Source: Candidatus Omnitrophota bacterium
GTDB lineage: Bacteria; Omnitrophota; Omnitrophia; Omnitrophales; Aquincolibacteriaceae
Reading direction: 5' to 3'
Length of the DNA stretch: 64,000 nt
Assembly: GCA_903819565.1 (NCBI GenBank)
Contig: CAIJDY010000030.1
Location: 7,128 to 71,127 of the forward strand
Below the pieces are notes generated by a model. It saw only the letters and a program-made list of their open reading frames with translations. It was not told where the DNA came from and ran no database searches. This document shows, piece by piece, positions 1,772 to 51,748 of the stretch. The position numbers and the translations under genes are program-made. The stretch's first letter is position 1; the number at the start of each line of letters is the position of its first letter.

Positions 1772-3436
1772 GTGTTTTCCCCAAAGCTGGCGACATGCCT
1801 TAAAGATTATTCCAAGGAGAAATTTTTCACGGATTGTATCGCGGGATTCATCGTCGGAGTTGTCGCGATCCCTTTGGCGATCGCTTTCGCGATCGCTTCC
1901 GGAGTGTCTCCGGACAAAGGTCTTTTTACGGCGATCATCGCCGGATTCCTCGTTTCCGCGCTGGGCGGGAGCCGGGTGCAGATCGGCGGGCCGACGGGCG
2001 CTTTTGTGGTCATTGTTTACGGTATTGTCCAGAAATACGGGATTGACGGACTGATTCTCGCGACGTTGATGGCGGGTATTATGCTTGTGGTCATGGGGAT
2101 CGCGAAACTCGGAACGGCGATCAAGTTCATGCCACATTCCGTGATCGTCGGGTTCACCAGCGGCATCGCGGTGATCATCTTTTCATCCCAGGTGAAGGAT
2201 TTCCTGGGTCTGAGTATTGAAAAAGTGCCGGCGGAATTTGTGGAAAAGTGGCACATCTTTTTTCAGCATTTGGGCACGGTGAATTACGTTGCGTTGTTGT
2301 TGGGCCTGGCCACGGTCTTGATCATTTCCGTGACTCCCAAATTTTCCAAAAGGGTTCCGGGCGCGCTTGTGGCCCTTATCGTCGTGACCGTTTTCGCGGC
2401 CGTGTTCCGTTTACCCGTCGAGACGATCGGCAGCCGTTTCGGGGAGCTGCCTCACGGCCTGCCCGTGCCGCATTTCCCTCTTCTGAATTTTTTAAAGATC
2501 CGGGAACTTCTTCAGCCGGCCGTGACGATCGCGCTCCTGGGAGCCATCGAGTCCCTGCTGTCCGCCGTAGTCGCGGACGGCATGATCGGGGCTCGACACC
2601 GTCCCAACACCGAGCTGATCGGTCAGGGGATCGCGAACATCGGCTCCGCGCTTTTCGGCGGGATCCCCGCGACGGGAGCGATCGCGAGAACCGTGACCAA
2701 TATTAAGAACGGGGGCAGGACCCCGGTTGCCGGGATCATTCACGCGATCACGGTCCTTCTCATCATGTTATTCTTCGGAGCTTGGGTCAAATTCGTGCCC
2801 CTGGCTTGTCTGGCGGGGATTCTCGTCGTGGTCGCGTACCATATGAGCGAATGGCGGTCTTTCCGCGAGCTGCTCAAAGGCTCCCGCGGCGGAAGGATCG
2901 TCCTGGGCATGACGTTCCTTTTGACGATCTTCGTGGACCTGAACGTTGCCATTGAGATCGGGGTGGTGCTGGCGGCATTCCTCTTCATGAAGCGGATGTC
3001 CGAGATAACGGATGTGAAGGTTTTTGCCCGGGAATATGAAGAAGACGAGAAAATGGAGCGGGGAGAGGATCGGCCCTTATCGGCCTTTTCACTTCCTCCG
3101 AAAGTCGAGGTTTACGAGATCAACGGCCCGCTTTTCTTTGGGGCCGCCAACAGCTTTGATGAGGCCGAGAGAGAGATCTCCGGAAAACGCAAGGTGCGGA
3201 TCCTGCGTTTCCGGGACGTGCCTTTGATCGATTCGACCGGCATGCACGCGCTGAAGGGTTTTTATAATAAGACCAAGCGGGAAGGCATCCGTCTTGTGAT
3301 GACCGGACTCCATGTCCAGCCGCTGAATGAAATGGTCAAATCGGATCTTTACGACCTGGTCGGCGAAGAGAACGTTTTCGCGAGCATGAAAGAGTCGATC
3401 GCGCGGGCGGAAGAATTGTTGAATGAAAAAAAATAG
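1772..3436 (+). CDS. SulP family anion transporter (sulfate/bicarbonate/dicarboxylate permease type) with C-terminal STAS domain
   Basis: 554 aa; GTG start preceded by AGGAGAG RBS; N-terminal region (…AIPLAIAFAIASGVSP…GGPTGAFVV…) matches SulP/BicA/DauA-type permeases; C-terminal soluble ~130 aa with STAS-like segment (NGPLFFGAANSF…IDSTGMHAL). Confidence 0.85.
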   Translation: MFSPKLATCLKDYSKEKFFTDCIAGFIVGVVAIPLAIAFAIASGVSPDKGLFTAIIAGFLVSALGGSRVQIGGPTGAFVVIVYGIVQKYGIDGLILATLMAGIMLVVMGIAKLGTAIKFMPHSVIVGFTSGIAVIIFSSQVKDFLGLSIEKVPAEFVEKWHIFFQHLGTVNYVALLLGLATVLIISVTPKFSKRVPGALVALIVVTVFAAVFRLPVETIGSRFGELPHGLPVPHFPLLNFLKIRELLQPAVTIALLGAIESLLSAVVADGMIGARHRPNTELIGQGIANIGSALFGGIPATGAIARTVTNIKNGGRTPVAGIIHAITVLLIMLFFGAWVKFVPLACLAGILVVVAYHMSEWRSFRELLKGSRGGRIVLGMTFLLTIFVDLNVAIEIGVVLAAFLFMKRMSEITDVKVFAREYEEDEKMERGEDRPLSAFSLPPKVEVYEINGPLFFGAANSFDEAEREISGKRKVRILRFRDVPLIDSTGMHALKGFYNKTKREGIRLVMTGLHVQPLNEMVKSDLYDLVGEENVFASMKESIARAEELLNEKK

Positions 3437-3803
3437 ATCCAGCGGAGTTTCTACGCGGGAAGGCCCCATGAAAAAAATAGATGACATGGTGTTCAAGATC
3501 AAAGCGGACTTTTTAAAAGCCCTGGCGCATCCGGCCCGTTTGCAGGTCATTGAATACCTCAAAAACGGGGAGGCCAGCGTGGGAAAACTTGTCCAGGCGC
3601 TGGGGATTGAACAGTCAAGCCTGTCGCGGCACTTGGCCACGCTGCGGAACCTCGGGGTCCTGGAGGCGCGCCAGGAAAAGACGAATGTTTACTATAACCT
3701 GCAGGATCATGATATTTTCAAGGTGTTGCGGCCGATCGCCGAGCTCCTCCGGAAAAAACTGAAAAGAAGCGAGAAAATGCTGGAGAGCCTCGGCGAAGAA
3801 TAA
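3423..3803 (+). CDS. ArsR/SmtB family HTH transcriptional regulator (no metal-binding Cys motif evident)
   Basis: HTH segment LKALAHPARLQVIEYLKNGEASVGKLVQALGIEQSSLSRHLATLRNLGVL is typical ArsR-family; start may instead be the internal ATG at 3468 (MKKIDDMVF). The 3' end of the SulP gene overlaps this ORF. Confidence 0.75.
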   Translation: MKKNRSSGVSTREGPMKKIDDMVFKIKADFLKALAHPARLQVIEYLKNGEASVGKLVQALGIEQSSLSRHLATLRNLGVLEARQEKTNVYYNLQDHDIFKVLRPIAELLRKKLKRSEKMLESLGEE

Positions 3804-3819
3804 GAAAGCGGGAAACGCC

Positions 3820-4503
3820 ATGCAATTGACTTTCCGTGAGATAGAAAACGCTTTTGAGGTCGAAGAGAAAACGCTTTATCAGTGGCTCAATGAGCGGGGA
3901 ATGCCGGCGGTCAAGGCCAACGATCAGTACTATTTCAACTCGGTCGAGGTCCTGGAATGGGCGCTCAAGTATAAGGTCCGTCTGACGCTCGGGGCCTTGA
4001 AGCTTTGTGAAAAAAACCGTCCCGGTCAGGATATTTTCACCCCGGCCCTCCTTCGCGGAGGCGTTCATTTCGGGATCAAGGGGGGCCGTCGCGAGGAGAT
4101 CTTCCGGGAAGTTTTGAGCCTCCTGCCGCTTCCAGGCCACATTGACCGTTCTTCTTTAATGGAAATGCTGATCTCCCGTGAACAGGCCGGCACGACCGGC
4201 ATCGGGAACGGGATCGCCATCCCTCACGTCAAACACCCCGTGATCTTTGCCGGCCTCGATCCCGTGATCGGGCTTTTTTTTCTTGAAAAACCGGTCGATT
4301 TTGCCGCCCTTGACGGAGAGCGGGTCCATACGCTGTTCGTGATACTGTCCGGCTCTTTTAAAGGACATTTGTCGCTCCTTTCTCGTTTGGCCTTTTGTCT
4401 GCAACGCGAAAGCGTTCAAGCGGTCCTGTGCCGCCGTTCGAATGCCGAAGATATCCTCGCGACGTTCCAGGTTGCGGAAGCAAAAACCGTGAAGACCTCC
4501 TAA
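3820..4503 (+). CDS. Two-domain regulator: N-terminal excisionase/MerR-type HTH (HTH_17-like) fused to PTS EIIA type-2 (EIIA-Ntr/PtsN-like) domain
   Basis: N-term LTFREIENAFEVEEKTLYQWLNERGMPAVKANDQYYFNSVEVLEW resembles HTH_17 DNA-binding domains; C-term REQAGTTGIGNGIAIPH carries the phosphorylatable His signature of PTS_EIIA_2; stop codon immediately abuts the next ATG (4504). Confidence 0.7.
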   Translation: MQLTFREIENAFEVEEKTLYQWLNERGMPAVKANDQYYFNSVEVLEWALKYKVRLTLGALKLCEKNRPGQDIFTPALLRGGVHFGIKGGRREEIFREVLSLLPLPGHIDRSSLMEMLISREQAGTTGIGNGIAIPHVKHPVIFAGLDPVIGLFFLEKPVDFAALDGERVHTLFVILSGSFKGHLSLLSRLAFCLQRESVQAVLCRRSNAEDILATFQVAEAKTVKTS

Positions 4504-6351
4504 ATGGAAACATTCTTCCGCGGGCCCTGGCAGGTCCCTTTCGGCGAACTCTCACTCAAGGTTGATCCCTTGAGCCTCGTTTTTCTTGTCGCGATCACGA
4601 TCCTTGTCCTGTGCGCCGGGGCATACGGTATCGGGTATATGCGTCCGTATCGAGGAAAGAAACCCTTGGGGATCCACGCCTTTTTTTACGGGGTCCTGGC
4701 GTTGGACCTTGTCCTTATCGTTACCGCCAACAACGCGATCCTTTTCCTGGGGGCGTGGGAGCTCATGACCCTTTCCACGTTTTTTTGTATTATTTTCGAT
4801 GACGAAAAATCCTCGGTGCGTAAGGCCGGATTTATTTATTTGATCGCGTCCCATTGCGCGACGTTTTTTCTTTTCCTGATGTTTTTTTTGATGGCCCGCG
4901 CCGCAGGATCGATGGATTTCGATATCATGGCGCGGACGGGTTTTTCGCCGGTCCTTGCGGGGATCGTTTTTCTCCTGGCGCTGGCCGGTTTCGGGGTCAA
5001 GGCGGGATTCCTCCCGGTGCATATTTGGTTGCCGTATGCCCATCCGGCCTCGCCTTCCCATATCTCCGCTTTGATGTCGGGGATCACGATCAAAATGGGG
5101 ATCTACGGGATCTGTCGCGTGCTGTGGATCATGAAAGTGCTGCCGAATTGGTGCGGGTATGTCCTTTTGATGATCGGCGTGTCCTCCGGCATTATGGGGG
5201 TCTTATACGCCCTCGGGCAGCACGAGTTGAAAAAATTGTTGGCCTATCACAGTATTGAAAATATCGGCATCATTGCGCTCGGGTTGGGTGTGGGATTATT
5301 GGGAAGGAGCCATCAGGTCCCCTTCCTCGCGGTTCTCGGATTCGGCGGAGGTCTCTTGCATGTCCTGAACCACTCGCTTTTCAAAAGCCTTCTTTTTTTT
5401 GGAGCGGGTTCCGTCATCCAAAAGACACACACCGGTGAAATGGACCGTCTCGGAGGCCTGGCCAGGACCTTGCCGGTCACAAGCATCCTTTTCCTGGTGG
5501 GGGCACTCTCGATCTGCGGTCTGCCGCTCTTTAACGGGTTCATCAGCGAATTCATTATTTATTTCGGGCTTTTCCAGGGACTTCTCGGTCTTCCAGTGCA
5601 AGGGGGGATCTTTTGTTCGCTGGGGATCCTTGCGCTGGCGCTTATGGGCGCGCTTGCCCTGGCCTGTTTTTGTAAAGTCTACGGGACCGTTTTTTTGGGT
5701 AAGCCCCGTGTGGATATCAATGGCCCTTTAAAGGATCCCGCGGCGCGGCAGGGGATCCGTGAAGGGACATCGCGGTGGATGCTTGTTCCCATGATGATCC
5801 TGGCGGGGCTCTGCGTCTGGATCGGTCTTGTTCCCCGGACAGCGGCGGGGTTGGCTTTCCGCGGAGGGGCCTACCTGACGCATGTGGATCTTGCCGCGGT
5901 CCCGCTGGGGCAGGTTTTCACGCCCTTGACGATGGTCGTCCGTATCGTCCTTCTGTTCCTCGCGCTCGTTTTGGGATTGATCGTGGTCCGGCGGTTTCTT
6001 TTGGGAGGAACGTCCATGCCAGTCCGGGAAACCTGGAGCTGCGGTTTTTCACAGGTCTCATCGAGATTTCAATACACCTCTGCTTCTTTTGCCCGATCGA
6101 TCGTCGATTTGATGAAAAACGTCCTTTTTTTCCGCCGCTACGGGGGACAGGTCGCGGGCGTTTTCCCGGAGAAAACGTCCTTGGTTTCCTCGGTTCACGA
6201 TGTTTCCGAAGAGATGGTTTACAGGCCCGGGTTGGCTTTGTTAAATTATATTTCCGAAAAACTCGGCCATAGCCGTATCCGTTATACGCAGCTCTACCTG
6301 GTCTACATTCTTCTGTTCCTGATATTTTTACTGGTCTGGAAATTAAAATAA
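4504..6351 (+). CDS. Complex I NuoL / hydrogenase-4 HyfB / MnhA-like antiporter-type membrane subunit
   Basis: 615 aa, ~15 predicted TM; conserved antiporter-subunit motif WLPYAHPASPSHISALMSGITIKMG (cf. [25 protein letters not shown] of NuoL/M/N family). Confidence 0.85.
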   Translation: METFFRGPWQVPFGELSLKVDPLSLVFLVAITILVLCAGAYGIGYMRPYRGKKPLGIHAFFYGVLALDLVLIVTANNAILFLGAWELMTLSTFFCIIFDDEKSSVRKAGFIYLIASHCATFFLFLMFFLMARAAGSMDFDIMARTGFSPVLAGIVFLLALAGFGVKAGFLPVHIWLPYAHPASPSHISALMSGITIKMGIYGICRVLWIMKVLPNWCGYVLLMIGVSSGIMGVLYALGQHELKKLLAYHSIENIGIIALGLGVGLLGRSHQVPFLAVLGFGGGLLHVLNHSLFKSLLFFGAGSVIQKTHTGEMDRLGGLARTLPVTSILFLVGALSICGLPLFNGFISEFIIYFGLFQGLLGLPVQGGIFCSLGILALALMGALALACFCKVYGTVFLGKPRVDINGPLKDPAARQGIREGTSRWMLVPMMILAGLCVWIGLVPRTAAGLAFRGGAYLTHVDLAAVPLGQVFTPLTMVVRIVLLFLALVLGLIVVRRFLLGGTSMPVRETWSCGFSQVSSRFQYTSASFARSIVDLMKNVLFFRRYGGQVAGVFPEKTSLVSSVHDVSEEMVYRPGLALLNYISEKLGHSRIRYTQLYLVYILLFLIFLLVWKLK

Positions 6352-6366
6352 AAAATGAGGTCCTGA

Positions 6367-7302
6367 GTGGATTTTATACTGAACAAGGCATTGCCGGTTT
6401 TGTTCCACTGGGGAGGCGTTTGCCTGTTCGCGCCGTTTTTTCTCGGCGTGATCGCCAGGGTGAAGGCATTTTTTTCAGGAAAAACGGGGCCTTCCGTGTT
6501 CCAGCTTTACTTTGATCTTGCGAAGCTCTTTCGCAAGAAGTGTGTCTACAGCGGCACCGCGACATGGATCTTTCGCGCGGCCCCCGCGGTGATCCTGGGG
6601 GTCATGCTGACCCTGTCCCTGATGGTCCCTTTCGGCAGATTCAAAGCGCCGGTGCAATTTTCGGGCGATGTCCTGTTGGCGGTCTATCTTCTGGCTGTAG
6701 GCAGATTTTTCATGATCCTCGCGGCCCTGGACACGGGGTCCAGTTTTGAAGGTATGGGGGCCAGCCGTGAAGCGTTCTTCTCGTGCCTGTCGGAATTGGC
6801 GCTCTTCATGAATTTCATCGTGCTGGCGCTGCTGGCCAAGAGCATTTCGCTCTCCCAGATGATCGGCGCGAATATCCCGATGTCCTGGGGAGGCATGGAA
6901 CCGGTGTTACTTCTGGTCGTGGTGAGTTTTTTCATCGTGCTTCTGGCGGAAAATTGCCGCATTCCGATAGACGATCCGGAGACCCACCTGGAACTGACGA
7001 TGATCCATGAGGTGATGATCCTGGACCACAGCGGCGTTGATCTGGCTTTCATGCTTCACGCCGCGGCAATGAAATTTTTTATTTTTTCCGGGATCCTTGT
7101 TTCCATCATCATCCCGGTGCGGACCGGGAACGCGGTGATGGACATGGCGATCTTTTTCGGCGGGATGCTGGGCCTGGCGGTCCTGGTGGGGGTCGTGGAG
7201 TCCACCACCGCTCGTTTCCGCCTTAACCGGGTAAGGCTCCTGTTGCTGATCTCGTTCGCGCTGGCATTTTTCGGTCTCATCGTAACGTTGTGGAGGGCCT
7301 GA
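6367..7302 (+). CDS. NuoH / HycD / HyfC-like membrane subunit of complex I / formate hydrogenlyase-type modules
   Basis: 311 aa; GTG start with GAGG RBS; N-term …FFLGVIARVKAFFSGKTGPSVFQLYFDLAKLFRKK…ATWIFRAAP… parallels HycD/NuoH conserved N-terminal region. Confidence 0.8.
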   Translation: MDFILNKALPVLFHWGGVCLFAPFFLGVIARVKAFFSGKTGPSVFQLYFDLAKLFRKKCVYSGTATWIFRAAPAVILGVMLTLSLMVPFGRFKAPVQFSGDVLLAVYLLAVGRFFMILAALDTGSSFEGMGASREAFFSCLSELALFMNFIVLALLAKSISLSQMIGANIPMSWGGMEPVLLLVVVSFFIVLLAENCRIPIDDPETHLELTMIHEVMILDHSGVDLAFMLHAAAMKFFIFSGILVSIIIPVRTGNAVMDMAIFFGGMLGLAVLVGVVESTTARFRLNRVRLLLLISFALAFFGLIVTLWRA

Positions 7303-7306
7303 GGGC

Positions 7307-7963
7307 ATGATGTCCTTGATCGATGTGTGTTGTATCCTGGCCGTGTTTCTGGCGCTGACGGTCCTGGCGACGCACCGTATTGTGGGAATGATCAAGCTCT
7401 TTGCGTTGCAATCCTTTTTCCTGAGCCTTGTGCCGCTGTTCCTGCACGCGGAGGCTCTTTCGGGCCGCGACCTCATGCTTTCTCTCGTGACGATGGTGCT
7501 CAAGGCCGCGTTGGTTCCTGCGATCCTCTTCTGGACGATCCGGCACATCTCGATGCGTTCCGAGATCAAACCAATCCTCGGGTTCGGGGCCTCGATCCTT
7601 TGCGGCGCGGCGTTGATCGCGGTCGCTTTCTGGATCTCCTTGTCTTTACGGTTGCCCGGAAAGCTGACCTCGAGCCTGGTCCTGCCGTGCTCGCTGGCGA
7701 CGATGCTGTTAGGTTTTATGACCATGGTGACCCGGACGCGTGCCATGACCCAGGTCTTGGGCTACATGGTGATCGAGAACGGGATTTTTCTTTTCGCGCT
7801 GTCGCTTTTTGACGCCATGCCGCTGCTCATTGAAATGGGCATCCTGCTGGATATTTTTGTCGCGGTCTTTATCATGGCCATCGTGCTCAATCACATCAAC
7901 GAGGAGTTCGAAAGGACCCGGGGCTCCGCGGTGAGCCGGCCTAAATGGGGGGAAAGTCAGTGA
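7307..7963 (+). CDS. Small polytopic membrane subunit, HyfE / NuoK / MnhC-like
   Basis: 218 aa, ~6 TM, sits between NuoH-like and NuoN-like genes as hyfE does in hyf operons; GGAGGG RBS; family call by position and size. Confidence 0.5.
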   Translation: MMSLIDVCCILAVFLALTVLATHRIVGMIKLFALQSFFLSLVPLFLHAEALSGRDLMLSLVTMVLKAALVPAILFWTIRHISMRSEIKPILGFGASILCGAALIAVAFWISLSLRLPGKLTSSLVLPCSLATMLLGFMTMVTRTRAMTQVLGYMVIENGIFLFALSLFDAMPLLIEMGILLDIFVAVFIMAIVLNHINEEFERTRGSAVSRPKWGESQ

Positions 7964-9375
7964 TCCTGTCCTTTTTGATCGCGATCCCGTTTATGGGAGC
8001 CCTGGCCGTATTGCTGCCGGTGAGGCCTCTGTTCAGACGGTGGTTTTTTTGGGCGGTGTCTCTCACGCATGCCTTGATCGTGACTTTTTTCTGGGCGCTG
8101 CGGCCGGCTCCGGAATGGCAGGGGTATCTGGTGCTGGACCCCCTAGGGCTTATCCTGCTCTCGGTGATAAGCCTTCTCTTTCTGGCCGTGTCTTTTTTCA
8201 TGATCGGTTATTTCCAGTATGAACAAAGGGGTAACCGGATATTCACGGCGTGTCTCTTGGCGCTTCTGTCCATGATGACGCTGGTTTCGGTGAGCTATCA
8301 CATGGGGCTTTTGTGGGTGGCAATAGAGACGACGACGCTTTTCAGCGCCCCTTTGATCGCTTTCCATCGTGATTGGAAAAGTCTGGAAGCCACCTGGAAG
8401 TACTTGCTGGTCTGTTCCGTGGGGATCGCTTTGGCGCTGATGGGGACCTTTTTCCTTGCGATCGCGGCTCACGATACGCACACGCTCCTTCTGCCGGCGA
8501 TCCTGAGCGCGGCGCCTTCACTTTCCGTCAATTGGCTGAAACTGAGCGTTATTTTCCTGTTCGTCGGCTACGGTTGCAAGATGGGACTTGCCCCGATGCA
8601 TAGCTGGAAGCCGGAAGCTTACGGCCAGGCGACCGGCATGGTGGTGGTTTTGATGGCCGGGGGCCTGACGCAGTGTTCTTTTTTGGCGCTCATGCGGGTG
8701 AGTCAGATCTGCTACAAGACAGGATTAAGCGATTTTTACGCTTCCATTCTGATCGTGACCGGGATCCTGTCGCTCGTGGTTCCGGCGGTACTTTTGTTGA
8801 GCGAGAAAAACATTAAAAGGTCGTTCGCTTTTTCCTCCGTCGAGCACATGGGGATCCTGGTCCTGGGGCTCGGGTTGGGAGGGCTCGGGATCTTTGGCGC
8901 CTTATTTCATATGGTCAATAACGCCCTGGCAAAGGTGGTGATGTTCCTTACGGCCGGGTCCATCGCCCAGAAATACGGGTCTTCCCGCGTCGAGGACGTG
9001 CGGGGGATCATCCACACCTATCCCATGACGGGCATTTTTTTGATCGTCTCGCTGTTTGCCGGGACGGGGATGTTCCCCTTCGCGACGTTCCATAGCGAAC
9101 TGTTGATACTCAACGCTTCGATCATTTCAAAGCACTACCTGTTGGCAGGGAGCTTCGTCCTGTGTCTGGCCGTTATTTTTATCGGAATGGCCAGGATCGT
9201 TTTGGCGTTCGTCTATGGCCAACCGACGGAACCGGTCCTGGCTAAAAAGGAAAATTTCTTTATGAATACGACCATCGTGGTTGCCGCGGTCGTCTTGCTG
9301 GGAGTTGGCTTGTGGATGCCGGTTTCCTTGAACAGGGCGCTCCACGAAGCGGTGACGTTGATCGGGGCGTCTTAA
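7945..9375 (+). CDS. NuoN/NuoM / HyfF-like antiporter-type membrane subunit
   Basis: 476 aa, ~13 TM, proton-pumping antiporter-like subunit profile; overlaps upstream gene (alternative GTG at 7960 gives GTGA start/stop overlap, suggesting translational coupling). Confidence 0.8.
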   Translation: MGGKSVILSFLIAIPFMGALAVLLPVRPLFRRWFFWAVSLTHALIVTFFWALRPAPEWQGYLVLDPLGLILLSVISLLFLAVSFFMIGYFQYEQRGNRIFTACLLALLSMMTLVSVSYHMGLLWVAIETTTLFSAPLIAFHRDWKSLEATWKYLLVCSVGIALALMGTFFLAIAAHDTHTLLLPAILSAAPSLSVNWLKLSVIFLFVGYGCKMGLAPMHSWKPEAYGQATGMVVVLMAGGLTQCSFLALMRVSQICYKTGLSDFYASILIVTGILSLVVPAVLLLSEKNIKRSFAFSSVEHMGILVLGLGLGGLGIFGALFHMVNNALAKVVMFLTAGSIAQKYGSSRVEDVRGIIHTYPMTGIFLIVSLFAGTGMFPFATFHSELLILNASIISKHYLLAGSFVLCLAVIFIGMARIVLAFVYGQPTEPVLAKKENFFMNTTIVVAAVVLLGVGLWMPVSLNRALHEAVTLIGAS

Positions 9376-9442
9376 TTCTTGTTTAAAAATTTACAGTGAA
9401 TTGGGGCGTAAACAAGGCCCGGTTTGGAACGAATGAGGACTT

Positions 9443-10957
9443 ATGGAATTGTTTAATGGCGGCAACATTTCTTTAAAAGATATCCCGGTTTTAGCGGAAA
9501 AAGAATTCCGCGAAGAAGTGATTCTTCGCTGCCGGGAGGACGCGCGGCTGATGAACTTTTTCGGATGCGCGGAGGACGGGGGCGACGTCCGCTTGATCGT
9601 GATCCTGGGACTCAGCGAAGAGTCTTTGTTGCGGGTGTTTGCGACAAAAATTCCGGCGGGATCTCCCCGTTATCAATCGTTGACCAGGGAGCTACCTCAA
9701 GCGCAATTATTCGAACGCGAGATCGCGGAGCAGTGGGCGGTCACCCCCGAAGGGCACCCTTGGCTTAAACCGGTGAGGTATCACGCGAATTACCGCGGCG
9801 TGCCGGACCTTTGGAAGGATGTCGCGCGGCAGACGATCCCGGGATCTTATCCTTTTTATGCCGTGGGCGGCGAGGAGGTCCATGAAGTGGGTGTGGGGCC
9901 GGTGCATGCCGGTATTATCGAGCCCGGACATTTCCGGTTCCAGTGTCACGGGGAAGAGGTGCTGCATCTGGAGATCCAATTGGGATACCAGCATCGCGGT
10001 ATCGAGCCCCTAATGGGCGTGGGAAAAGATCTGAAACGGGGAGTTCTTTTAAGCGAGTCCATTGCCGGGGACACTTCGATCGGTCATTCTACGGCGTATT
10101 GCGAGGCGATCGAATCGCTGGCGGGTTGCGCGGTTCCGCTGAGGGCGCAGGCCCTCCGCGCGGTGACGCTGGAGCTGGAACGGCTGGCGAATCACGTGGG
10201 CGACCTGGGCGCTTTGGGGATGGATGCCGGTTTTCTGCCGACCAGCGCGTATTTCGGCCGCATGCGTGGGGATTACTTGAATCTATTGCTGGAACTGACG
10301 GGAAACCGTTTTGGGAAGGGACTCTGCCGGCCGGGAGGTGTCCTTTTTGATATGGATACTGCCATGGCCGAAGATTTCTGCCGGAAACTGAAGCGCTATA
10401 AAAAAGAATTCGAAGAAGTAAGCGATCTTTTTTTCACCCGTCCGTCGGTCCTTGCGCGTTTTGAAGGTATCGGGATTCTTCCCCTGAAGACCGCGAAAGA
10501 CCTGGGGGTGGTGGGTCCCGTTGCGCGCGCGAGCCAGTCGGAGCAGGATGTGCGTATCGATTATTCCTCCGGGATATGGCAATTCTATCATGTGCCCATT
10601 TCTCTGGCCGCGACCGGGGACGTTTACGCGCGGGCTCTGGTGCGGCGGCAGGAAGTGATGCGCTCGCTGGAATTCTTGCTGAAACTTTTGCCGTCTTTAC
10701 CCAAAGGGGATATCAGAGCCCCCCTCGGTCCTTTAAAGCCGGAGAGGCTTGCGGTCTCTCTGGTAGAGGGATGGCGCGGCGAGATCATGCATGTCGGTAT
10801 GACCGACGGCCAGGGCGCCTTGTCCCGATACAAGATCAAAGATCCCTCGTTTCACAATTGGTTCGCATTGACCCACGCGATGCGCAATCAGGAAATATCT
10901 GATTTTCCGTTATGCAATAAAAGCTTCAATTTGTCCTATTGCGGGCATGATCTATGA
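9443..10957 (+). CDS. Fused NuoC-NuoD / HycE-like large subunit of a group-4 [NiFe]-hydrogenase-related complex; canonical Ni-Fe Cys ligands apparently absent
   Basis: 504 aa; N-terminal ~120 aa NuoC(30 kDa)-like, remainder NuoD/HycE-like (…HRGIEPLMG…GHSTAYCEAIE…RGDYLN…). Where HycE/EchE have the L1 motif R-x-C-G-I-C-x-x-x-H the sequence reads SIAGDTSIGH; the C-terminal DPCxxCxxR position reads NLSYCGHD (Cys offset, spacing broken). Confidence 0.8.
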   Translation: MELFNGGNISLKDIPVLAEKEFREEVILRCREDARLMNFFGCAEDGGDVRLIVILGLSEESLLRVFATKIPAGSPRYQSLTRELPQAQLFEREIAEQWAVTPEGHPWLKPVRYHANYRGVPDLWKDVARQTIPGSYPFYAVGGEEVHEVGVGPVHAGIIEPGHFRFQCHGEEVLHLEIQLGYQHRGIEPLMGVGKDLKRGVLLSESIAGDTSIGHSTAYCEAIESLAGCAVPLRAQALRAVTLELERLANHVGDLGALGMDAGFLPTSAYFGRMRGDYLNLLLELTGNRFGKGLCRPGGVLFDMDTAMAEDFCRKLKRYKKEFEEVSDLFFTRPSVLARFEGIGILPLKTAKDLGVVGPVARASQSEQDVRIDYSSGIWQFYHVPISLAATGDVYARALVRRQEVMRSLEFLLKLLPSLPKGDIRAPLGPLKPERLAVSLVEGWRGEIMHVGMTDGQGALSRYKIKDPSFHNWFALTHAMRNQEISDFPLCNKSFNLSYCGHDL

Positions 10958-10988
10958 AGCGCTTTGACCGTAGAAGCGGGGAGCCTTT

Positions 10989-11669
10989 ATGCTGAATATT
11001 TTAATGGAGCGTTTAAAACAGGGCCGCCGGACTTTATCCTTTCCCAAGGGGAAGCCCCCGGTCCTGCCGGCGCGTTATCGGGGCCGCCCCATCGTCGCGG
11101 GCCTGAAAGACGGTGTGGACTTGGGGAAGATCACCTTTATCCCCGACAGCGGCATTCAACATTCTAATGATTTTCGTATGGCGGCTTCTCGCCGGGAAGA
11201 TCTCGTTCTTAAGGGTGACGACGCGCACGCTTTGGCACATGCGTTGAATAAGAAGATCTTGGAGATGTTCGGCCGTTCTCTGAAGCTGCGGCAGGTTTCA
11301 GCGGGCGGGTGCAATGCCTGCGAGGCAGACATCAATGTCCTGAATACGCCCGTCTTTGATCTCAGCCGTTTCGGTATTCAATTCGTCGCGTCGCCGCGCC
11401 ATGCCGACGGGATCGTCGTCACGGGTCCCATTTCGCGCAATATGAAAGAAGCGCTTCTGAAAACTCACGAAGCCACACCGGACCCCAAGATCGTTATTGC
11501 GGTCGGTGCTTGCGCGATCTCCGGAGGTATTTTTTCCGAAAGTCCGGAATCTTCCAAGGGGCTGGACACCCTTCTTCCCGTAGACCTTTATATCCCCGGC
11601 TGTCCTCCGCACCCCTTGACCATTCTTGACGGGCTCCTGAGATTGATGGGAAGGCTCAGAAAAGAATGA
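10989..11669 (+). CDS. NuoB / HycG / EchC-like small subunit with intact [4Fe-4S] (N2-type) Cys set
   Basis: 226 aa; …RSLKLRQVSAGGCNACEAD… (CxxC), …AVGACAISGG…, …YIPGCPPHP… correspond to the four Cys of HycG/NuoB-type subunits. Confidence 0.8.
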   Translation: MLNILMERLKQGRRTLSFPKGKPPVLPARYRGRPIVAGLKDGVDLGKITFIPDSGIQHSNDFRMAASRREDLVLKGDDAHALAHALNKKILEMFGRSLKLRQVSAGGCNACEADINVLNTPVFDLSRFGIQFVASPRHADGIVVTGPISRNMKEALLKTHEATPDPKIVIAVGACAISGGIFSESPESSKGLDTLLPVDLYIPGCPPHPLTILDGLLRLMGRLRKE

Positions 11670-11782: not shown

Positions 11783-12259
11783 TTAATGAGAAGCCTGTTC
11801 GCCCGCGTCCGGAGTTTCCGGGGGAGCGACCTGGAGGGGGTTCAGATTGGCGTGGAAGGCCCATTTCCAGCCCTCCGGAGTCTTGATCCAGCCGCTGAGG
11901 CGCATCGCCGCCCGCGTGGGAAGGTCCAGGGGGCCGATGTTCTCTTCGGTCATGACCCGGTAGCTGACAAGAATGAGGGAATCGGTTTGCGTGGTTTTAA
12001 TATAGCTGAGCTCGTACTGGTCAATGTTCAGTTCCTTCAGAAGCGCCATTTCTTCCGCTCCGTTGCGGGCGATATCCTCATGGACGGACTGGAACTCCGG
12101 GGCCATATCTTTTTCGATCTGGGCCCAATTGCCTTCATGAACGTTCTTCCAGAGTTCACGGACAAGCGTTTCGCCCTGGGACATCTCTTCAGCGAAAGTC
12201 GGTGGAACGGAACCCAGTAAAAAGAAAACGAAACAAAGAACGACGAGTTTGTTTCTCAT
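11783..12259 (-). CDS. Secreted NTF2-like / SnoaL-like fold protein (unknown function)
   Basis: Start taken at internal MRNKLVVLCFVFFLLGSVPPTFA (Sec signal peptide); ~135-aa mature domain with W/E-rich pattern typical of NTF2-like (DUF4440/SnoaL-like) proteins; family call tentative. Confidence 0.45.
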   Translation of the reverse strand: MRNKLVVLCFVFFLLGSVPPTFAEEMSQGETLVRELWKNVHEGNWAQIEKDMAPEFQSVHEDIARNGAEEMALLKELNIDQYELSYIKTTQTDSLILVSYRVMTEENIGPLDLPTRAAMRLSGWIKTPEGWKWAFHANLNPLQVAPPETPDAGEQASH

Positions 12260-12298
12260 GGCGTCTCCTTCCATGCGGATCTTCATACCGTCTCAGGG

Positions 12299-12769
12299 TT
12301 AGTCGGACTCTTTCCAGATATCGCCGCGCCGTCCGATCTTAACAACGTCGTTTATCTTGATCTTCAGGATGGCGAATTTCTCCGAGATCTCCACTTCGAA
12401 ATGTTCGTGTTTTTTTCCCGTCCGGACCGCTTCGATCACGCGGTCGGCCGAGAGCTTGACGACTTTTTCATCCCATTCTCTCAACATGGCATCGTAGCTT
12501 TTGCCCCGCTCGATCACTTTTGCGGTCCCGTTCAGGCGGTAGGCCTCCAGAGCGTCCTGTTCCATAAAAGAAACGGAGACGAGGGGGTTCTCTTTGATGT
12601 TGACGACCGTCTGGCCCATGACGTGATCGATCAAATAGAGGGAATCCCTCTTGGCGTGGAGAAAAAGCTTCGGGGCGGAATTCGGCCGGCCGTCACGGGT
12701 GGCGGTGCCGACCGAGACGAACTTTCTTTTTCCGAGTAATTCCTGGATTTTTTCCGTGATCTTGGGCAT
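12299..12769 (-). CDS. Pyridoxamine 5'-phosphate oxidase-like FMN-binding protein (general stress protein 26-like)
   Basis: 156 aa; …FVSVGTATRDGRPNSAPKLFL…LYLIDHVMGQTVVNIKENPLVSVSF… pattern typical of PNPOx split-barrel family. Confidence 0.6.
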   Translation of the reverse strand: MPKITEKIQELLGKRKFVSVGTATRDGRPNSAPKLFLHAKRDSLYLIDHVMGQTVVNIKENPLVSVSFMEQDALEAYRLNGTAKVIERGKSYDAMLREWDEKVVKLSADRVIEAVRTGKKHEHFEVEISEKFAILKIKINDVVKIGRRGDIWKESD

Positions 12770-12942
12770 AAAAGTCCTTGAAGGTCCCCATTATACTCCC
12801 AAAACGGCAAAAGTTGTGCCAGTTTCGTGGTCTCTACTCAAATCAGGGCAGAGCGCAATAAGAATTGGATATTGCGGCAGACCTCAAACCTGCGCGAGCC
12901 AAACTGCTTGCCTCTATAGGTGAAATCCATTATAAGAAGGGC

Positions 12943-14094
12943 ATGCCCCGAGGATTGTATATTCATATTCCGTTCTGCAAGACCCGCTGCCACTATTGCA
13001 ATTTCATTTCGTTCGGAGAGACTACGCCGGAATTCCGGGAACGGTTCTTTAAGGCCTTATTTGAAGAGGTCCGTGAGGCCGGAAAAAAATATGGACAGCT
13101 GTTTTTCGACACGCTGTATCTCGGGGGCGGGACGCCGTCGCTGTTAAACGCTCAAGAGATGACCGGGCTTTTCGGGGAGGTCCGGAAAAATTTCGAAATT
13201 TCACAAGACGCCGAGATCACCTGCGAATGGAATCCGGGGGACGGGGAGGAAGAAAAATTCTCCGTTCTCAGAGCTCTGGGAGTCAACCGCCTCAGCCTCG
13301 GCGTCCAGTCTTTTCAGGACGGTCTATTGTCCCAGCTCGGGCGGAGGCATACCGTTCATGATACTTTGCGGACGCTCGAGAAGATCCAAAAAGCGGGCAT
13401 CGGCAATATCAGTTTTGACCTGATGCTTCGGATCCCGGGGCAGAAGCTCGCGGATTTTCAGGAGTCGCTTGAACGGTGCGTCGCATGCGGCGCCGCGCAG
13501 GTTTCGCTTTATGATTTGGAGGTCCATAAGGCCACGGTGTTCGGCGGGTTGCGGGAAAAAGGAGCGCTGGCGCTTCCGGATGAAGAGGAGCACGCGGGGA
13601 TGTATCAGGCGGCATGTGAAGGTCTGGTCCGCGCCGGCTACGAGCATTACGAGATCTCCAATTTCGCGAGGCCCGGCTTTGCGTCCCGGCACAATCTCAT
13701 CTATTGGCACAACCAGGAGTACCTGGGGCTGGGTCCCGGAGCTTTTTCCTATCTCGGCGGGATCCGTTCCCAATTCGCGGGCGAGGGGATCCGGTATCTT
13801 GAAAAGTGCGAGGCCGGGGACTGGCGGAACGATCAGGAAGACGTTCTCTCTGAAGCGGAACGGGAAACGGAGACTTTCGCGATGGGACTCCGTTTGGCAG
13901 AGGGCGTGAAGCTCCGGGATTTTCCGGGCATTTATCCGGGTCTTCGGGAACGCGTCGAGACCTTGTTGCAGAAAGGACTCCTTGAGCTCGCGGATGAAGA
14001 ATTACGTTTAACGGCCTGGGGGCGGTTCCTTTCGGAGGACATTTTCGGTTTTCTACTTCAAAAGGATAGGGGTTCCGAAGCGTGTTTTTTATGA
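12943..14094 (+). CDS. hemW: Radical SAM family heme chaperone HemW / HemN-like oxygen-independent coproporphyrinogen oxidase homolog
   Basis: LYIHIPFCKTRCHYCNF (CxxxCxxC radical-SAM motif directly after conserved LYIHIPFC); start moved to ATG at 12943 (AAGAAGGG RBS) rather than the TTG at 12865. Confidence 0.75.
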   Translation: MPRGLYIHIPFCKTRCHYCNFISFGETTPEFRERFFKALFEEVREAGKKYGQLFFDTLYLGGGTPSLLNAQEMTGLFGEVRKNFEISQDAEITCEWNPGDGEEEKFSVLRALGVNRLSLGVQSFQDGLLSQLGRRHTVHDTLRTLEKIQKAGIGNISFDLMLRIPGQKLADFQESLERCVACGAAQVSLYDLEVHKATVFGGLREKGALALPDEEEHAGMYQAACEGLVRAGYEHYEISNFARPGFASRHNLIYWHNQEYLGLGPGAFSYLGGIRSQFAGEGIRYLEKCEAGDWRNDQEDVLSEAERETETFAMGLRLAEGVKLRDFPGIYPGLRERVETLLQKGLLELADEELRLTAWGRFLSEDIFGFLLQKDRGSEACFL

Positions 14095-14151
14095 TATATT
14101 ATTCCCCAGCTTGATCTGCGAAACTCACCTTGCAACAAAGGAGAAATCAAC

Positions 14152-14904
14152 ATGAGAACCTTTTTCAGAATCTGTATCGTTGCGGTTTTATTTTCTTTGG
14201 CAATCACGCCTTACGCTCTCGCCGAAGAAGCCAAGACTTCCGAAAGGTCCGAAGGCGCGACGGTTCAGGTAACTCCCGTGGCGGCGACGATTGTCGACGC
14301 GTCGGCCCAGGCCCGGGTCATCGTCAGCGCCCCGGTACCGGCGACCGTGGTCTCGCCCGTGGTTGAAAAGACGACGCTGGATAATCTCCAAGCGGCGTTC
14401 AACGGTGAAAGCAACGCCCATGCCCGTTATTTGGCGTTCGCGAAGAAAGCGGACGAAGAAGGGTACGGGAAGGTCGCCAATCTTTTCCGCGCGGCCGCTC
14501 GCGCTGAGCAGGTTCATTTTGAAAATCACACCAAGGTCATCAAGGAGCTCGGGGGAACCCCGACCGCCAAGATCGAAACCCCGGTCGTGAAAACCACGGC
14601 TGAGAACCTTAAAGCCGCTTTTGACGGGGAAACTTACGAGACGACCGTGATGTATCCGGAGTTTCTCGCGAAGGCCCAGAAGGACAAGGTCAAAGGCGCG
14701 ATAGATACTTTCGAGGATGCCGGGCGGGCCGAGGCTGTTCACGCCGCTCTCTATAAAAAAGCCATGCAGGATTTGCCGGCATGGAAGGGCAAGGGGAAGG
14801 GGTTTTTTGTTTGCCCGGTTTGCGGGAATGTGGTCGAGAAAACGGATTTTCTAAGATGCCCGATTTGTGATACGAGCAAAAAGCTGTTCATAACGGTTAA
14901 GTAA
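14152..14904 (+). CDS. Rubrerythrin (ferritin-like diiron domain + C-terminal rubredoxin-like CxxC…CxxC) with N-terminal Sec-type signal peptide and T/V/A/P-rich linker
   Basis: MRTFFRICIVAVLFSLAITPYALA signal peptide; LQAAFNGESNAHARY…E…H ferritin-like E/H motifs twice; C-term CPVCGNV…CPICD rubredoxin-like Zn/Fe ribbon. Confidence 0.8.
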   Translation: MRTFFRICIVAVLFSLAITPYALAEEAKTSERSEGATVQVTPVAATIVDASAQARVIVSAPVPATVVSPVVEKTTLDNLQAAFNGESNAHARYLAFAKKADEEGYGKVANLFRAAARAEQVHFENHTKVIKELGGTPTAKIETPVVKTTAENLKAAFDGETYETTVMYPEFLAKAQKDKVKGAIDTFEDAGRAEAVHAALYKKAMQDLPAWKGKGKGFFVCPVCGNVVEKTDFLRCPICDTSKKLFITVK

Positions 14905-14915
14905 GCACCTGCGCG

Positions 14916-14955
14916 AAAAAAAAGGCGGGACCGGTTTTCCGGTTCCGCCTTTTTT
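14916..14955. terminator. Bidirectional rho-independent terminator between convergent rubrerythrin and gpmA genes
   Basis: AAAAAAAA-GGCGGGACCGG-TTTT-CCGGTTCCGCC-TTTTTT: 11-bp GC-rich stem (one G.U), 4-nt loop, A-tract upstream and T-tract downstream. Confidence 0.6.
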
Positions 14956-14973
14956 CCCTTAAGGGAGCGTTCC

Positions 14974-15723
14974 TTACTTCTTCGCTTTTCCCTGACTTGC
15001 CACCGCATCCATGGCCGCTTTGATCTTTTCCGGGTCGCCGAGGTAATAGTGTTTCACCGGTTTCAGGTTCGAGTCGAGCTCGTAAACAAGCGGGATGCCG
15101 GTCGGGATGTTCAAACCGAGGATCTCCTCTTCGGAGACGTTATCCAGGTATTTCACCAGCGCGCGAAGGCTGTTGCCGTGCGCCGCGATGAGGACTTTTT
15201 TCCCCGACTTGATCGCGGGGGCGGCGACCTCGTGCCAGAACGGAAGGACGCGCGCGACCGTGTCTTTCAGGCATTCCGTAAGCGGGAGTTCGGTTTTTTT
15301 AAGATCTTTATAGCGCGGATCCAGAGCCGGTGAGCGCGGATCGTTAGGTTCAAGCTTCGGGGGAGGAACATCGTAACTCCGGCGCCAGATCTTGACCTGA
15401 TCTTCGCCGAATTTCGCGGCGGTCTCCGATTTGTTCAGCCCCTGCAGGGAGCCGTAGTGGCGTTCGTTCAAACGCCAGTCCCTGACCACCGGGATCCACA
15501 TGAGGTCCATTTTATCCAGGACGATCCATAGGGTCCGGATGGCGCGCTTCAGAACGGACGTGAAGGCGATATCGAAGGCATAGCCCTCTCTTTTGAGTAG
15601 TGCGCCGCCTTCGCCCGCCTCCTGAAGTCCTTTTTCGGACAGGTCTACGTCGGTCCATCCCGTGAACCGGTTCTCTTTGTTCCAGGTACTTTCTCCGTGA
15701 CGGATCAAAACGATCTTATACAT
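14974..15723 (-). CDS. gpmA: 2,3-bisphosphoglycerate-dependent phosphoglycerate mutase
   Basis: [32 protein letters not shown]… with RHG catalytic His motif and full-length (249 aa) dPGM signature. Confidence 0.9.
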
Positions 15724-40480: not shown

Positions 40481-40522
40481 CAGAACCTCTAGAACGGGTT
40501 ACGATCCGGTCTTGCGACGGTC

Positions 40523-48851: not shown

Positions 48852-48853
48852 GG

Positions 48854-49765: not shown

Positions 49766-49771
49766 AACGGC

Positions 49772-51217: not shown

Positions 51218-51748
51218 TTAGCGAATCCCGCTTTTGAATTTGCAAAGGAGCCGGAACAGCTCTTTTTTTTCATCGGGCTTGAATTCCGAAAAGATCCGAT
51301 GGATCGTCGTGTAATGATGGGGAAGATAACTTTCGAGCAGGGCTTTTCCTTTTGGGGTGATCTTCACAAGCCAGGCGCGGCCGTCACTCCGGTCCGCTTC
51401 CCGTTTGGCCAGGCCTTTGCGGACCAGCGCGTTCACAAGGCCTGTGACATTGGCCCGGCTCACGAGGAGTAGTTTGCTGATATCGTGCTGTTTGAGTTTT
51501 TTCCCCGAGCTCCGGCTCAGGATCATCAGGACGTTGAACACCGCGGGGGACAGGCCGTAACCCGCCATGAGTTTCGTAAAATGGACCATAAGTACGTCGT
51601 AGGTATAAACAAAAGTCAGCAGGGTCCGGACGGCGGGCCAATCGAACGCTTTGTATTTTTTTCCGAACTCGCGGATCCGGGTCCAGTAATAGCTGGCGCG
51701 CAGGTCTTCCGCGACGGGCAGGGCTGGGGGAATGGGGCGCTTTTTCAT
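51218..51748 (-). CDS. MarR-family transcriptional regulator
   Basis: …LSPAVFNVLMILSRSSGKKLKQHDISKLLLVSRANVTGLVNALVRKGLAKRE… winged-HTH of MarR type; first gene of the MarR-TolC-EmrA-EmrB unit. Confidence 0.8.
   Translation of the reverse strand: MKKRPIPPALPVAEDLRASYYWTRIREFGKKYKAFDWPAVRTLLTFVYTYDVLMVHFTKLMAGYGLSPAVFNVLMILSRSSGKKLKQHDISKLLLVSRANVTGLVNALVRKGLAKREADRSDGRAWLVKITPKGKALLESYLPHHYTTIHRIFSEFKPDEKKELFRLLCKFKSGIR

Follow-up and report, generated by a model that had tools for sequence, protein, structure and literature searches.

What does a membrane module resembling respiratory complex I have to do with an anion transporter? The question is raised by a stretch of 64,000 nucleotides from a Candidatus Omnitrophota bacterium (GenBank assembly GCA_903819565.1, contig CAIJDY010000030.1, positions 7,128 to 71,127 of the forward strand), here called the window and numbered from its first letter, in which nine genes join a SulP/STAS anion transporter, two regulators and a six-subunit module related to complex I and group 4 hydrogenases. 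The original prediction for this cluster saw an uncharacterised system in which the transporter is wedded to the module, perhaps for the uptake of bicarbonate or sulfate. All nine open reading frames (ORFs) are present on the + strand with the positions, order and labels that it gave, and Pfam and NCBIfam models back each label. The comparison with relatives gives a different emphasis: the conserved partner of the membrane module is the second regulator, a helix-turn-helix (HTH)–EIIA protein, and not SulP. What the comparison brings out is this partner with its recognisable operator, a series of forms in which the electron-input parts decay, and a selected form without those parts, the only one tied to an anion transporter; the interest of the locus lies less in SulP than in what the comparison reveals about the module itself.

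Judged by its gene order, its missing [NiFe] ligands and the Geobacter and Geomonas relatives that have the same layout, the six-subunit module is an Ehr (Ech-hydrogenase-related) complex, not a hydrogenase and not new as a family. About 70 relatives, spread over many phyla, have the order EhrA-B-C-D-L-S. Geobacter argillaceus (locus L072), Geomonas limicola (L067) and an uncultured Geobacter (L064), the three loci that our Geobacter comparison covers, have the same set of subunits, with large subunits 48–50% identical to that of the window. The Geobacter-type Ehr agrees with the window in its six subunit types and their order, in having no [NiFe] cysteines and in keeping the ligands of the proximal cluster. 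Genomes have revealed Ehr complexes since the mid-2000s; Coppi reportedly named Ehr in G. sulfurreducens (GSU0739-45), and Marreiros et al. are said to have surveyed the complexes in 2013. In the literature we consulted, Ehr is the G. sulfurreducens cluster GSU0739-45, of unknown role and more abundant on formate in Geobacter (PMC7894505), and a hypothesis linking formate dehydrogenase (FDH) and Ehr treats the latter as a redox-coupled ion translocator (PMC6349859). Ehr is present in about half of Nitrospirales genomes, and papers from 2019 to 2025 still describe its function as unknown, so that the system is indeed uncharacterised, though its family already has a name.

The large subunit EhrL (9443–10957, 504 residues) is a fused NuoC+NuoD/HycE-like protein (Complex1_49kDa 1e-37, Complex1_30kDa 2e-6), whose closest solved chains are E. 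coli HycE (7z0s_E, 2.7e-51) and Pyrococcus MbhL (2.3e-43). The HycE segment RVCGICGFAH aligns to SIAGDTSIGH in EhrL, and the C-terminal DPCYSC motif, located on E. coli HyfG, aligns to NLSYCG. The four [NiFe] cysteine positions hold A, T, S and G in the window, and the same residues in 92–100% of 102 relatives; the four cysteines are absent from the window and from all 102. Without [NiFe] ligands, production or use of H2 by the known mechanism would be impossible, and a true group 4 hydrogenase or formate hydrogenlyase was rejected on this ground. The small subunit EhrS (10989–11669, 226 residues) is NuoB/HycG/MbhJ-like (Oxidored_q6 1e-31), and here too the closest solved chains come from group 4 [NiFe] hydrogenases, namely MbhJ (6cfw_J, 1.8e-38) and HycG (7z0s_G, 1.6e-34). 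The resemblance extends to the membrane subunits, which best fit the HyfB, HyfC, HyfE and HyfF models. Compared with these enzymes (Hyf/Hyc, 7Z0S; Mbh, 6CFW), the window is without the [NiFe] ligands, without a separate HycF/NuoI subunit and, among the ORFs scanned across all 64 kb, without genes for FDH, hyp maturases, ferredoxin or phosphotransferase system (PTS) partners, in agreement with the prediction of a module that travels without FDH, hyp and ferredoxin companions. The full core set of respiratory complex I (NDH-1) is not there either: the window has only L-, H-, N-, CD- and B-like subunits plus a HyfE-like one, and no NuoA, J, K, I or E/F/G module.

To place the regulators, we mapped the nine window proteins onto 80 Ehr-anchored loci taken from species-representative genomes (at least 588 relatives exist), 49 of which had enough upstream DNA; Ehr relatives span Omnitrophota, Verrucomicrobiota, Planctomycetota, Gemmatimonadota, Acidobacteriota, Desulfobacterota, Spirochaetota and other phyla. 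The HTH-EIIA gene adjoins Ehr in 42 of the 49, directly upstream on the same strand in 40 and divergently in two, both Geobacter. The converse set consists of 80 metagenome loci anchored on HTH-EIIA, and Ehr genes come directly after it in 58 of the 60 that could be evaluated for the following gene. HTH-EIIA is therefore the conserved partner of Ehr. The coupling is also tight, with the EIIA stop and the ehrA start lying within 4 nucleotides of each other in either direction in about 65 of 98 loci and overlapping as ATGA in 33 of the 98. We found no published mention of a link of Ehr to EIIA or to SulP in a search that had the two founding Ehr papers outside its reach.

The window protein (3820–4503, 227 residues) matches HTH_17 (1.7e-5) and PTS_EIIA_2 (4.8e-21), and members of the family, 225–240 residues long, join an N-terminal HTH_17 domain of the excisionase/BldC type to a PtsN-like C-terminal domain. 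In an alignment of 12 sequences from several phyla neither the GIAIPH phospho-His motif nor His183 varies, and among 48 members of the family both are conserved to at least 95%. An AlphaFold2 model of the protein (predicted local distance difference test, pLDDT, 86.9; predicted template modelling score, pTM, 0.84) places the C-terminal 130 residues in the PtsN fold, with Foldseek template modelling scores of about 0.8 to 2A0J, 3URR, 4GQX and 1A6J, and none of the structural matches was a solved structure with the two-domain HTH_17 and EIIA architecture. After PtsN, the EIIA domain is structurally nearest to the regulatory domains that SLC4/Band 3 anion and bicarbonate exchangers have on their cytoplasmic side, a known fold relationship that is no evidence of function here. 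The window protein has both the PTS_EIIA_2 fold and the phospho-acceptor histidine of EIIA(Ntr)/PtsN, but differs in its N-terminal HTH_17 domain and in being the first gene of an ehr operon instead of lying beside rpoN. PtsN regulates ion transporters such as the Trk and Kdp potassium systems. We name the Ehr partner EhrR, a putative phospho-controlled DNA-binding regulator encoded by the first gene of ehr operons.

A candidate target for the HTH domain is found in many lineages upstream of the HTH-EIIA gene, where TGGACAT at −80 to −60 is followed by an inverted ATGTCCA at −60 to −20 (for instance in L028, with the element at about −77 to −43 from the EIIA start, and in L017, L014, L103, L113 and L081; the upstream repeat can read TGGACAT(T)). 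The repeats are phased: 27 pairs stand exactly 10 bp apart, compared to at most one at spacings of 8, 9, 11 or 12. Phased pairs occur in 25 of 113 upstream regions against a shuffle mean of 0.075, and these regions hold 27 of all 34 phased pairs in 1.97 Mb. Since the repeat pattern is that expected for such a DNA-binding domain, it argues that HTH-EIIA autoregulates ehr operons through these elements. Sigma-54 promoters, which would be expected if the operons were tied to RpoN/PTS(Ntr), were found upstream of EIIA-ehr in none of the 113 regions. Given such a regulator and operator, Ehr expression would be expected to respond to a signal of the PTS(Ntr) type.

Several loci depart from the usual arrangement. 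Two tandem EIIA genes are present in L019, L042 and L145, and two tandem paralogs of the NuoL-like EhrA in 10 of the 49 loci, including L019, L020, L023, L033, L042, L054, L066, L067 and L070. In the Geobacter loci L064 and L072, HTH-EIIA and one EhrA paralog are divergent from the rest of the cluster. Two Planctomycetaceae loci (L027, 9161–12345; L030, 177–3217) have an EIIA-like gene directly 5′ of EhrL-EhrS, and L027, with no Ehr membrane-subunit gene within 10 kb on either side, looks like a split peripheral arm. Genes for a Ppx-GppA exopolyphosphatase, a polyphosphate kinase and a ROK kinase lie 3′ of ehr in the Omnitrophota loci L001 (12769–17444) and L169 (11306–15828), with glycogen-metabolism genes close by. 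PtsN is reported to regulate polyphosphate production in E. coli (bioRxiv 10.1101/2021.10.15.464621).

The feature that sets the window apart among Ehr complexes lies in the two peripheral subunits. A typical EhrS has an N-terminal extension of about 125 residues with two CxxCxxCxxxC motifs, a fused HycF/NuoI-type 2x[4Fe-4S] domain, of which the window extension, with 96 residues and no cysteine, is a remnant. Among 91 sequences the extension holds seven or more cysteines in the majority (67), two to six in 12 that include Geobacter, mostly five and consistent with one surviving cluster, and none or one in the remaining 12, which are the window and other Omnitrophota, with a deletion of about 30 residues, and a subset of Gemmatimonadota. 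That the extension is a vestigial HycF remnant throughout the family was rejected, as most relatives have complete 2x[4Fe-4S] motifs and only the subclass of the window is degenerate. A cysteine-free extension makes the window a variant of Ehr and not a non-member, the domain being the majority state of the family and not a published criterion for it. The window thus differs from the Ehr majority in an EhrS without the 2x[4Fe-4S] domain, in an EhrL without the cysteine pair described below and in an operon preceded by sulP-arsR. The Gemmatimonadota copies without clusters share the lineage signature LGACLFSPEE with their 5-Cys relatives, and their lesions differ, being either full length with no cysteine or a deletion; signature and lesions together point to a loss of the domain independent of that in Omnitrophota.

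The proximal cluster follows another pattern. The EhrS cysteines C108, C111, C175 and C205, which align to the cluster cysteines of MbhJ/HycG and would ligate an N2-type cluster, are kept by every one of the 12 cluster-less sequences and, in the family at large, by at least 90 of 94. In EhrL, two further cysteines, Cys271 and Cys286, are present in about 77% of Ehr large subunits (consensus ASYCGRIRGDFLNLTALLCGNRFG), in 64 of 66 Ehr with the full clusters and in none of the 12 cluster-less ones; the window has F271 and T286 there (nucleotides about 10253–10255 and 10298–10300). Position 286 aligns to the T of the TGFRMH motif in E. coli NuoCD. Because the pair co-varies almost perfectly with the 2x[4Fe-4S] domain of EhrS, Cys271/Cys286 is a candidate redox-active pair near the N2-type cluster. 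We call the pair absent and not lost in the cluster-less forms, since HycE and HyfG are also without both cysteines and our EhrL tree, a rough neighbour-joining (NJ) one, is poorly resolved at its base.

In EhrL the motif AGDT..GH and a C-terminal motif ISDFPLCNKSFNLSYCGHDL (10898–10954) stand in place of the two [NiFe] ligand motifs and are nearly invariant across phyla, and the C-terminal DFPLCNKSFNLSYCGHDL is nearly invariant in redox-competent and stripped variants alike, which suggests that these motifs form a different conserved site. The EhrS domain with two, one or no clusters can be read as a natural deletion series; since it co-varies with Cys271/Cys286, it points to the redox-active parts of the complex.

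The membrane arm of the window complex also appears intact. It is made up of EhrA (4504–6351, 615 residues), a NuoL/HyfB-like antiporter-type subunit (Proton_antipo_M 9e-52; HyfB model 531 bits); EhrB (6367–7302, 311 residues), which is NuoH/HyfC-like (NADHdh 3e-32); EhrC (7307–7963, 218 residues), a small HyfE-like subunit (NF008556 hydrogenase-4 membrane subunit 5e-25, with a weak NuoK-like Oxidored_q2 match); and EhrD (7945–9375), an antiporter-type subunit of the NuoN/HyfF kind (Proton_antipo_M 7.5e-37; HyfF models at most 272 bits). When ion-pathway residues were mapped through the E. coli NuoL/M/N/H numbering, the window was found to retain every canonical ion-translocation residue examined. 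In EhrA these are the Glu of transmembrane helix (TM) 5, E86, the TM7 Lys K166, H286/H290/K294 and the TM12 Glu E349 (conserved in 68–71 of 71 members), in EhrB the acidic residues of the E-channel E143, D202, E209 and D220 (64–66 of 67), and in EhrD E128, K152, K212 and E385 (66–74 of 74). The ratio of nonsynonymous to synonymous substitution rates (dN/dS) against four relatives is about 0.06–0.15 across the nine genes, with sulP at 0.06, ehrC at 0.06–0.09, the cysteine-free remnant of EhrS at 0.11–0.14 and arsR itself at 0.01–0.06, and all nine genes are under strong purifying selection. Because the N2-type cysteines, the ion residues and purifying selection are kept while the ferredoxin-type clusters are gone, the window Ehr is functional, yet very probably unable to take electrons by the usual route.

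With this in mind the position of SulP can be considered. As a partner of Ehr in general it does poorly, a close homolog being nearby in only three of the 49 Ehr-anchored and four of the 38 EIIA-anchored loci evaluated. Its distribution is not even, however: SulP stands beside 7 of the 12 loci with 0–1 cysteines in the EhrS extension compared to none of the 79 with two or more, and the seven SulP-linked loci with an available EhrS all fall in the 0–1 group. In Omnitrophota it lies directly upstream in 8 of 13 loci (the window, L003, L005, L006, L085, L167, L168 and L171), with a gap of 1–2 nucleotides after sulP in L003 and L006 and with ArsR intervening in the closest relatives of the window, and in the other five the slot is taken by a malic enzyme, FKBP-ArsR or glycogen genes, or simply lacks SulP. 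In Gemmatimonadota it is found beside L073 and L164 on the divergent strand and beside L101 and L119 on the same strand with a gap of about 80 nucleotides; the 5-Cys relatives L042, L056, L070, L129 and L155 have no SulP neighbour. SulP sits on two sub-branches of that phylum, which together with Omnitrophota makes about three independent co-occurrences. The linked SulP is always of the same subfamily, with 56–60% identity between phyla, and in a Pfam census of 95 upstream flanking ORFs it was the most recurrent family, the rest being scattered over 103 families. The same census, which covered the upstream side only, gave no conserved flanking gene that would hint at an electron donor, the flanks being essentially unconserved. 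The overlap of their match lists indirectly indicates that SulP, EhrL and EIIA are often co-resident.

The SulP link is non-random but not obligatory. The neighbourhood comparison proposed with the original prediction found SulP rare beside Ehr, close to the outcome named there as speaking against the pairing, and yet not randomly placed; as a wedding of SulP to the module in general the claim fails, and what survives of it is a pairing confined to the cluster-less subclass on about three branches. The order sulP-arsR-EIIA-ehrABCDLS itself recurs in L005, L167 and L168, where the large subunits are 74–86% identical to that of the window, and because of this recurrence the nine-gene arrangement is, as far as gene order can tell, not a chance juxtaposition. 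In L101 (9915–10003) and L119 (7080–7175) the region between SulP and EIIA holds a conserved GC-rich inverted repeat, TTCGCGACGCC...GGTCGCG, which could form a hairpin or serve as an operator of another kind than TGGACAT.

The SulP of the window (1772–3436, 554 residues) is an SulP/SLC26 anion transporter with a C-terminal STAS domain (Sulfate_transp 8.6e-89, STAS 2.8e-14; TIGR00815 sulP 389 bits, above its cutoff of 380), an architecture common to DauA (E. coli YchM), SLC26Dg and BicA. Its best NCBIfam model is DauA with 520 bits (cutoff 614), followed at a distance by BicA with 295 bits (cutoff 880), and being below both equivalog cutoffs it is by score a member of neither. The best solved relative is the SLC26Dg fumarate transporter (5DA0, 3e-56), with BicA (6KI1) at 3e-52. 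A gene for a DctA/GltP-type SDF transporter lies directly upstream of the cluster in the window, and neighbouring genes in relatives encode ACT-domain malic enzymes, a CitMHS transporter, citrate synthase and fumarase. Neither a DabA/CupA-like nor a carbonic-anhydrase-like protein was found among the nine proteins with Pfam and NCBIfam. Given the DauA/SLC26Dg matches, the DctA/CitMHS/TCA-type (tricarboxylic acid cycle) neighbours and the lack of carbonic-anhydrase-, DabA- or CupA-like proteins in that search, the substrate is most plausibly a C4-dicarboxylate (malate, fumarate or succinate); bicarbonate and sulfate, the anions originally suggested, are less supported by the model scores and by the neighbouring genes. 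Genes for ACT-domain malic enzymes lie directly 5′ of EIIA-ehr in the Omnitrophota loci L170 (2098–3522, overlapping the EIIA start), L172 (1837–3291) and L003 (1–1188), and L003 also has the CitMHS transporter and a downstream MFS transporter, the latter recurring in L007, L008 and L041.

The gene that follows, arsR (3423–3803), encodes an ArsR/SmtB-family repressor (HTH_5 3e-12; NF033788 82 bits, above its cutoff of 55) with no cysteine at all, and thus without a thiol-based site for sensing metals or metalloids. Upstream of sulP a candidate promoter with an ArsR-type operator can be read directly on the + strand at 1604–1654. A −35-like TTGCTG (1604–1609) is followed by a 17-nucleotide spacer and a −10-like TATATG, which is embedded in two overlapping palindromes, TATAT-GAGA-ATATA at 1627–1640 and ATGAGAATAT-ACCC-ATATATCTCAT at 1630–1654. 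The sulP leaders of L167 and L085 share with it the conserved block TTGCTK-17 nt-(C/T)ATAT(A/G)N2-4(T/A)ATAT(A/G). A palindrome over the −10 region is a plausible operator for ArsR. Neither a riboswitch nor another known RNA was found in the sulP leader or elsewhere in the window.

What was observed of gene content, of the family to which the module belongs, of individual residues, of neighbourhoods and of selective constraint leads us to propose, with a probability of roughly 0.45 and so somewhat short of even odds, that a redox-stripped Ehr acts as a regulated, Mrp-like H+/Na+ translocator co-expressed with an ion-coupled SulP, the coupling ion being recycled between them. Two modules would be joined head to tail and most likely co-transcribed. 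The first would consist of a DauA/SLC26Dg-like SulP/STAS symporter and its own cysteine-free ArsR/SmtB repressor, acting at the palindromic operator over the sulP promoter, and the second of a seven-gene ehr operon in which HTH-EIIA precedes EhrA-B-C-D-L-S. HTH-EIIA would be a dedicated Ehr regulator that binds DNA and is probably phosphorylated on histidine by a PTS(Ntr)-type relay. The stripped Ehr would work mainly as an H+/Na+ translocating machine and not as an electron-driven pump, and the fusion of sulP to ehr would reflect a shared coupling ion and shared regulation, the ion co-transported with the anion being recycled; the coupling need not take the form of an obligatory physical complex. 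We propose a non-redox role because the electron-input parts are absent, the ion residues are kept and purifying selection is strong. Mrp antiporters, which run without electron input, offer a model for this mode of working, though not a family to which Ehr would belong: they share NuoL/M/N-type subunits, the Glu/Lys/His/Lys-Glu pathway residues and a NuoK-like small subunit, whereas Ehr has in addition NuoH-, NuoCD- and NuoB-like subunits and an Fe-S cluster, and the window is without MrpE, MrpF and MrpG. Should the stripped Ehr indeed run with no supply of electrons, it would stand midway between complex-I-type enzymes and Mrp-type antiporters, and might illustrate how machines of this sort are turned to transport.

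A number of observations weigh against this proposal. Of about 16 cluster-less loci that could be evaluated, 5 have no SulP. Nor is the SulP subfamily dedicated to Ehr, since three close homologs, on contigs that match no Ehr contig, do not adjoin Ehr, and L174 has an isolated SulP-ArsR pair next to genes for citrate synthase and fumarase. The correlation between SulP and cluster loss rests on about three independent events. Upstream of the window operon, as of all SulP-linked and inspected Omnitrophota loci, the phased TGGACAT operator is absent, which leaves DNA binding by HTH-EIIA in this lineage, and its control of sulP, without support from a cis-element, and no gene for PtsP, PtsO/NPr or HPr is found among the ORFs scanned across the 64 kb. 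On the redox side, E. coli HycE has F/T and HyfG F/I at the 271/286 positions, and retention of the N2-type cluster in every variant argues that some redox or redox-sensing role persists. The substrate call from homology and neighbours is weak, with BicA and SLC26Dg about equally similar. We know of no experiment on any Ehr.

The persistence of the N2-type cluster leads to the view that the stripped Ehr is still a redox enzyme, in which that cluster would take electrons from a soluble donor (ferredoxin, flavodoxin or a partner encoded elsewhere) and pass them to the EhrL site while ions are pumped. SulP would then import or export a substrate or product, or be an unrelated neighbour. We think this view unlikely. 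It accounts well for the four N2-type cysteines in the 12 cluster-less sequences and nearly all of the family, and for the invariance of AGDT..GH and the C-terminal motif in competent and stripped variants, and it is in line with published proposals of Ehr as a redox-coupled ion translocator (PMC6349859; PMC7894505). However, both ferredoxin-type clusters that normally wire the donor to the proximal cluster are gone, as is the Cys271/286 pair that co-varies with them, and no candidate gene for a donor or acceptor is seen in the window or recurs in the flanks of relatives. It is likewise doubtful that there is no specific link at all, with sulP-arsR an independent cassette and the correlation a product of shared ancestry and small numbers. 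In its favour are the 46 of 49 Ehr-anchored loci without a close SulP homolog nearby, the pair on its own beside TCA-cycle genes in L174, and the malic enzyme, FKBP and glycogen genes that fill the same upstream slot in sister Omnitrophota; the rough NJ tree and the small number of independent events also fit. Against this, SulP is the single most recurrent family in the upstream census and is seen in more than half of the cluster-less loci but beside no locus with two or more cysteines. SulP is present beside L101 and L119 but not beside the 5-Cys loci nearest to them, L042, L129 and L155, and three arrangements (tight on the same strand, with an 80-nucleotide gap, and divergent) argue against a single inherited accident. 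Should the adjacency be incidental after all, the cluster would be one more Ehr operon beside a transporter cassette.

At the other extreme, SulP, perhaps through its STAS domain, could dock on the stripped Ehr to form a physically coupled, energy-driven anion pump in which ion flow drives or gates uptake. The restriction of SulP to the branches, about three and independent, where the ferredoxin-type domain has decayed would suit such a pump, as would the recruitment of the same subfamily each time, the purifying selection on all parts and the sulP-EIIA gaps of 1–2 nucleotides in L003 and L006, which suggest co-translation. A pump of this kind nevertheless seems improbable, as about one third of the cluster-less operons have no adjacent SulP (L001, L086, L169, L170 and L172), SulP is transcribed divergently in the Gemmatimonadota loci L073 and L164, and the subfamily also occurs away from Ehr, as in L174. 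DabAB and the NDH-1(3/4)/CupA-CupB systems are precedents, in that a complex-I-type antiporter subunit with a non-respiratory use is genetically linked to the acquisition of inorganic or organic anions; the nine window proteins, by Pfam and NCBIfam, include no DabA (PF10070), CupA/ChpY or carbonic-anhydrase-like component, the window SulP is nearer to DauA than to BicA by NCBIfam score, and its gene context is one of C4-dicarboxylate metabolism. A far-reaching version, in which a complex-I-like machine that shed the clusters for electron input was recruited, independently and on three or more occasions, as an energising or gating partner of SulP, switched by HTH-EIIA, would amount to a new class of ion-gradient-coupled uptake of anions (dicarboxylate or bicarbonate), parallel to DabAB and NDH-1/Cup in mechanism but built from unrelated parts, and we regard it as a long shot.

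The junctions within the cluster are mostly tight, with spacings of −14, +16, 0, +15, +4, −19, +67 and +31 nucleotides along the nine genes. The smallest of the gaps originally given, −19, is thus confirmed and the largest, +85, is not found, the longest being 67. Two predicted couplings are real in the sequence: the TAA stop of HTH-EIIA abuts the ATG of ehrA at 4503/4504, and a GTGA joins ehrC and ehrD, whose start is either ATG 7945 or GTG 7960, the latter overlapping the ehrC stop, with GGGGGGAAAG standing 5′ of it. The overlap of sulP and arsR holds for the longest ORF (−14). In the gene calls on an identical contig and on relatives, arsR starts at its second ATG (3468, 111 residues), which turns the overlap into a gap of 31 nucleotides, and this product is more likely than the one of 126 residues from ATG 3423. 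No convincing intergenic terminator was found inside the cluster, the matches being weak and mostly intragenic, with a total of 32 compared to 22.7 +/- 4.2 expected. A weak hairpin with a 6-bp stem, followed by TTAATTCTTG, lies at 9354–9371, at the ehrD/ehrL junction where the 67-nucleotide gap begins, and could be an attenuator, a processing site or simply chance.

Beyond the cluster, the genes downstream at 11783–15723 (PNPOx-like, HemN-like radical SAM and histidine phosphatase) are syntenic with L167 (11264–13843), and to these the window adds a DUF4440 protein and a rubrerythrin (14152–14904). Three long ORFs at 21903–23912, 24028–25989 and 29721–31796 (669, 653 and 691 residues) have no Pfam match, and the first two sit in a stretch of lower G+C (about 0.51) with a strongly negative AT skew. 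On the − strand follow a sensor histidine kinase of 1455 residues with dCache and multiple PAS domains (33894–38261) and two tripartite efflux systems, one with a MacB-type ABC protein, HlyD and OEP (38510–42854) and one with MarR, OEP, HlyD and MFS components (47244–51748).

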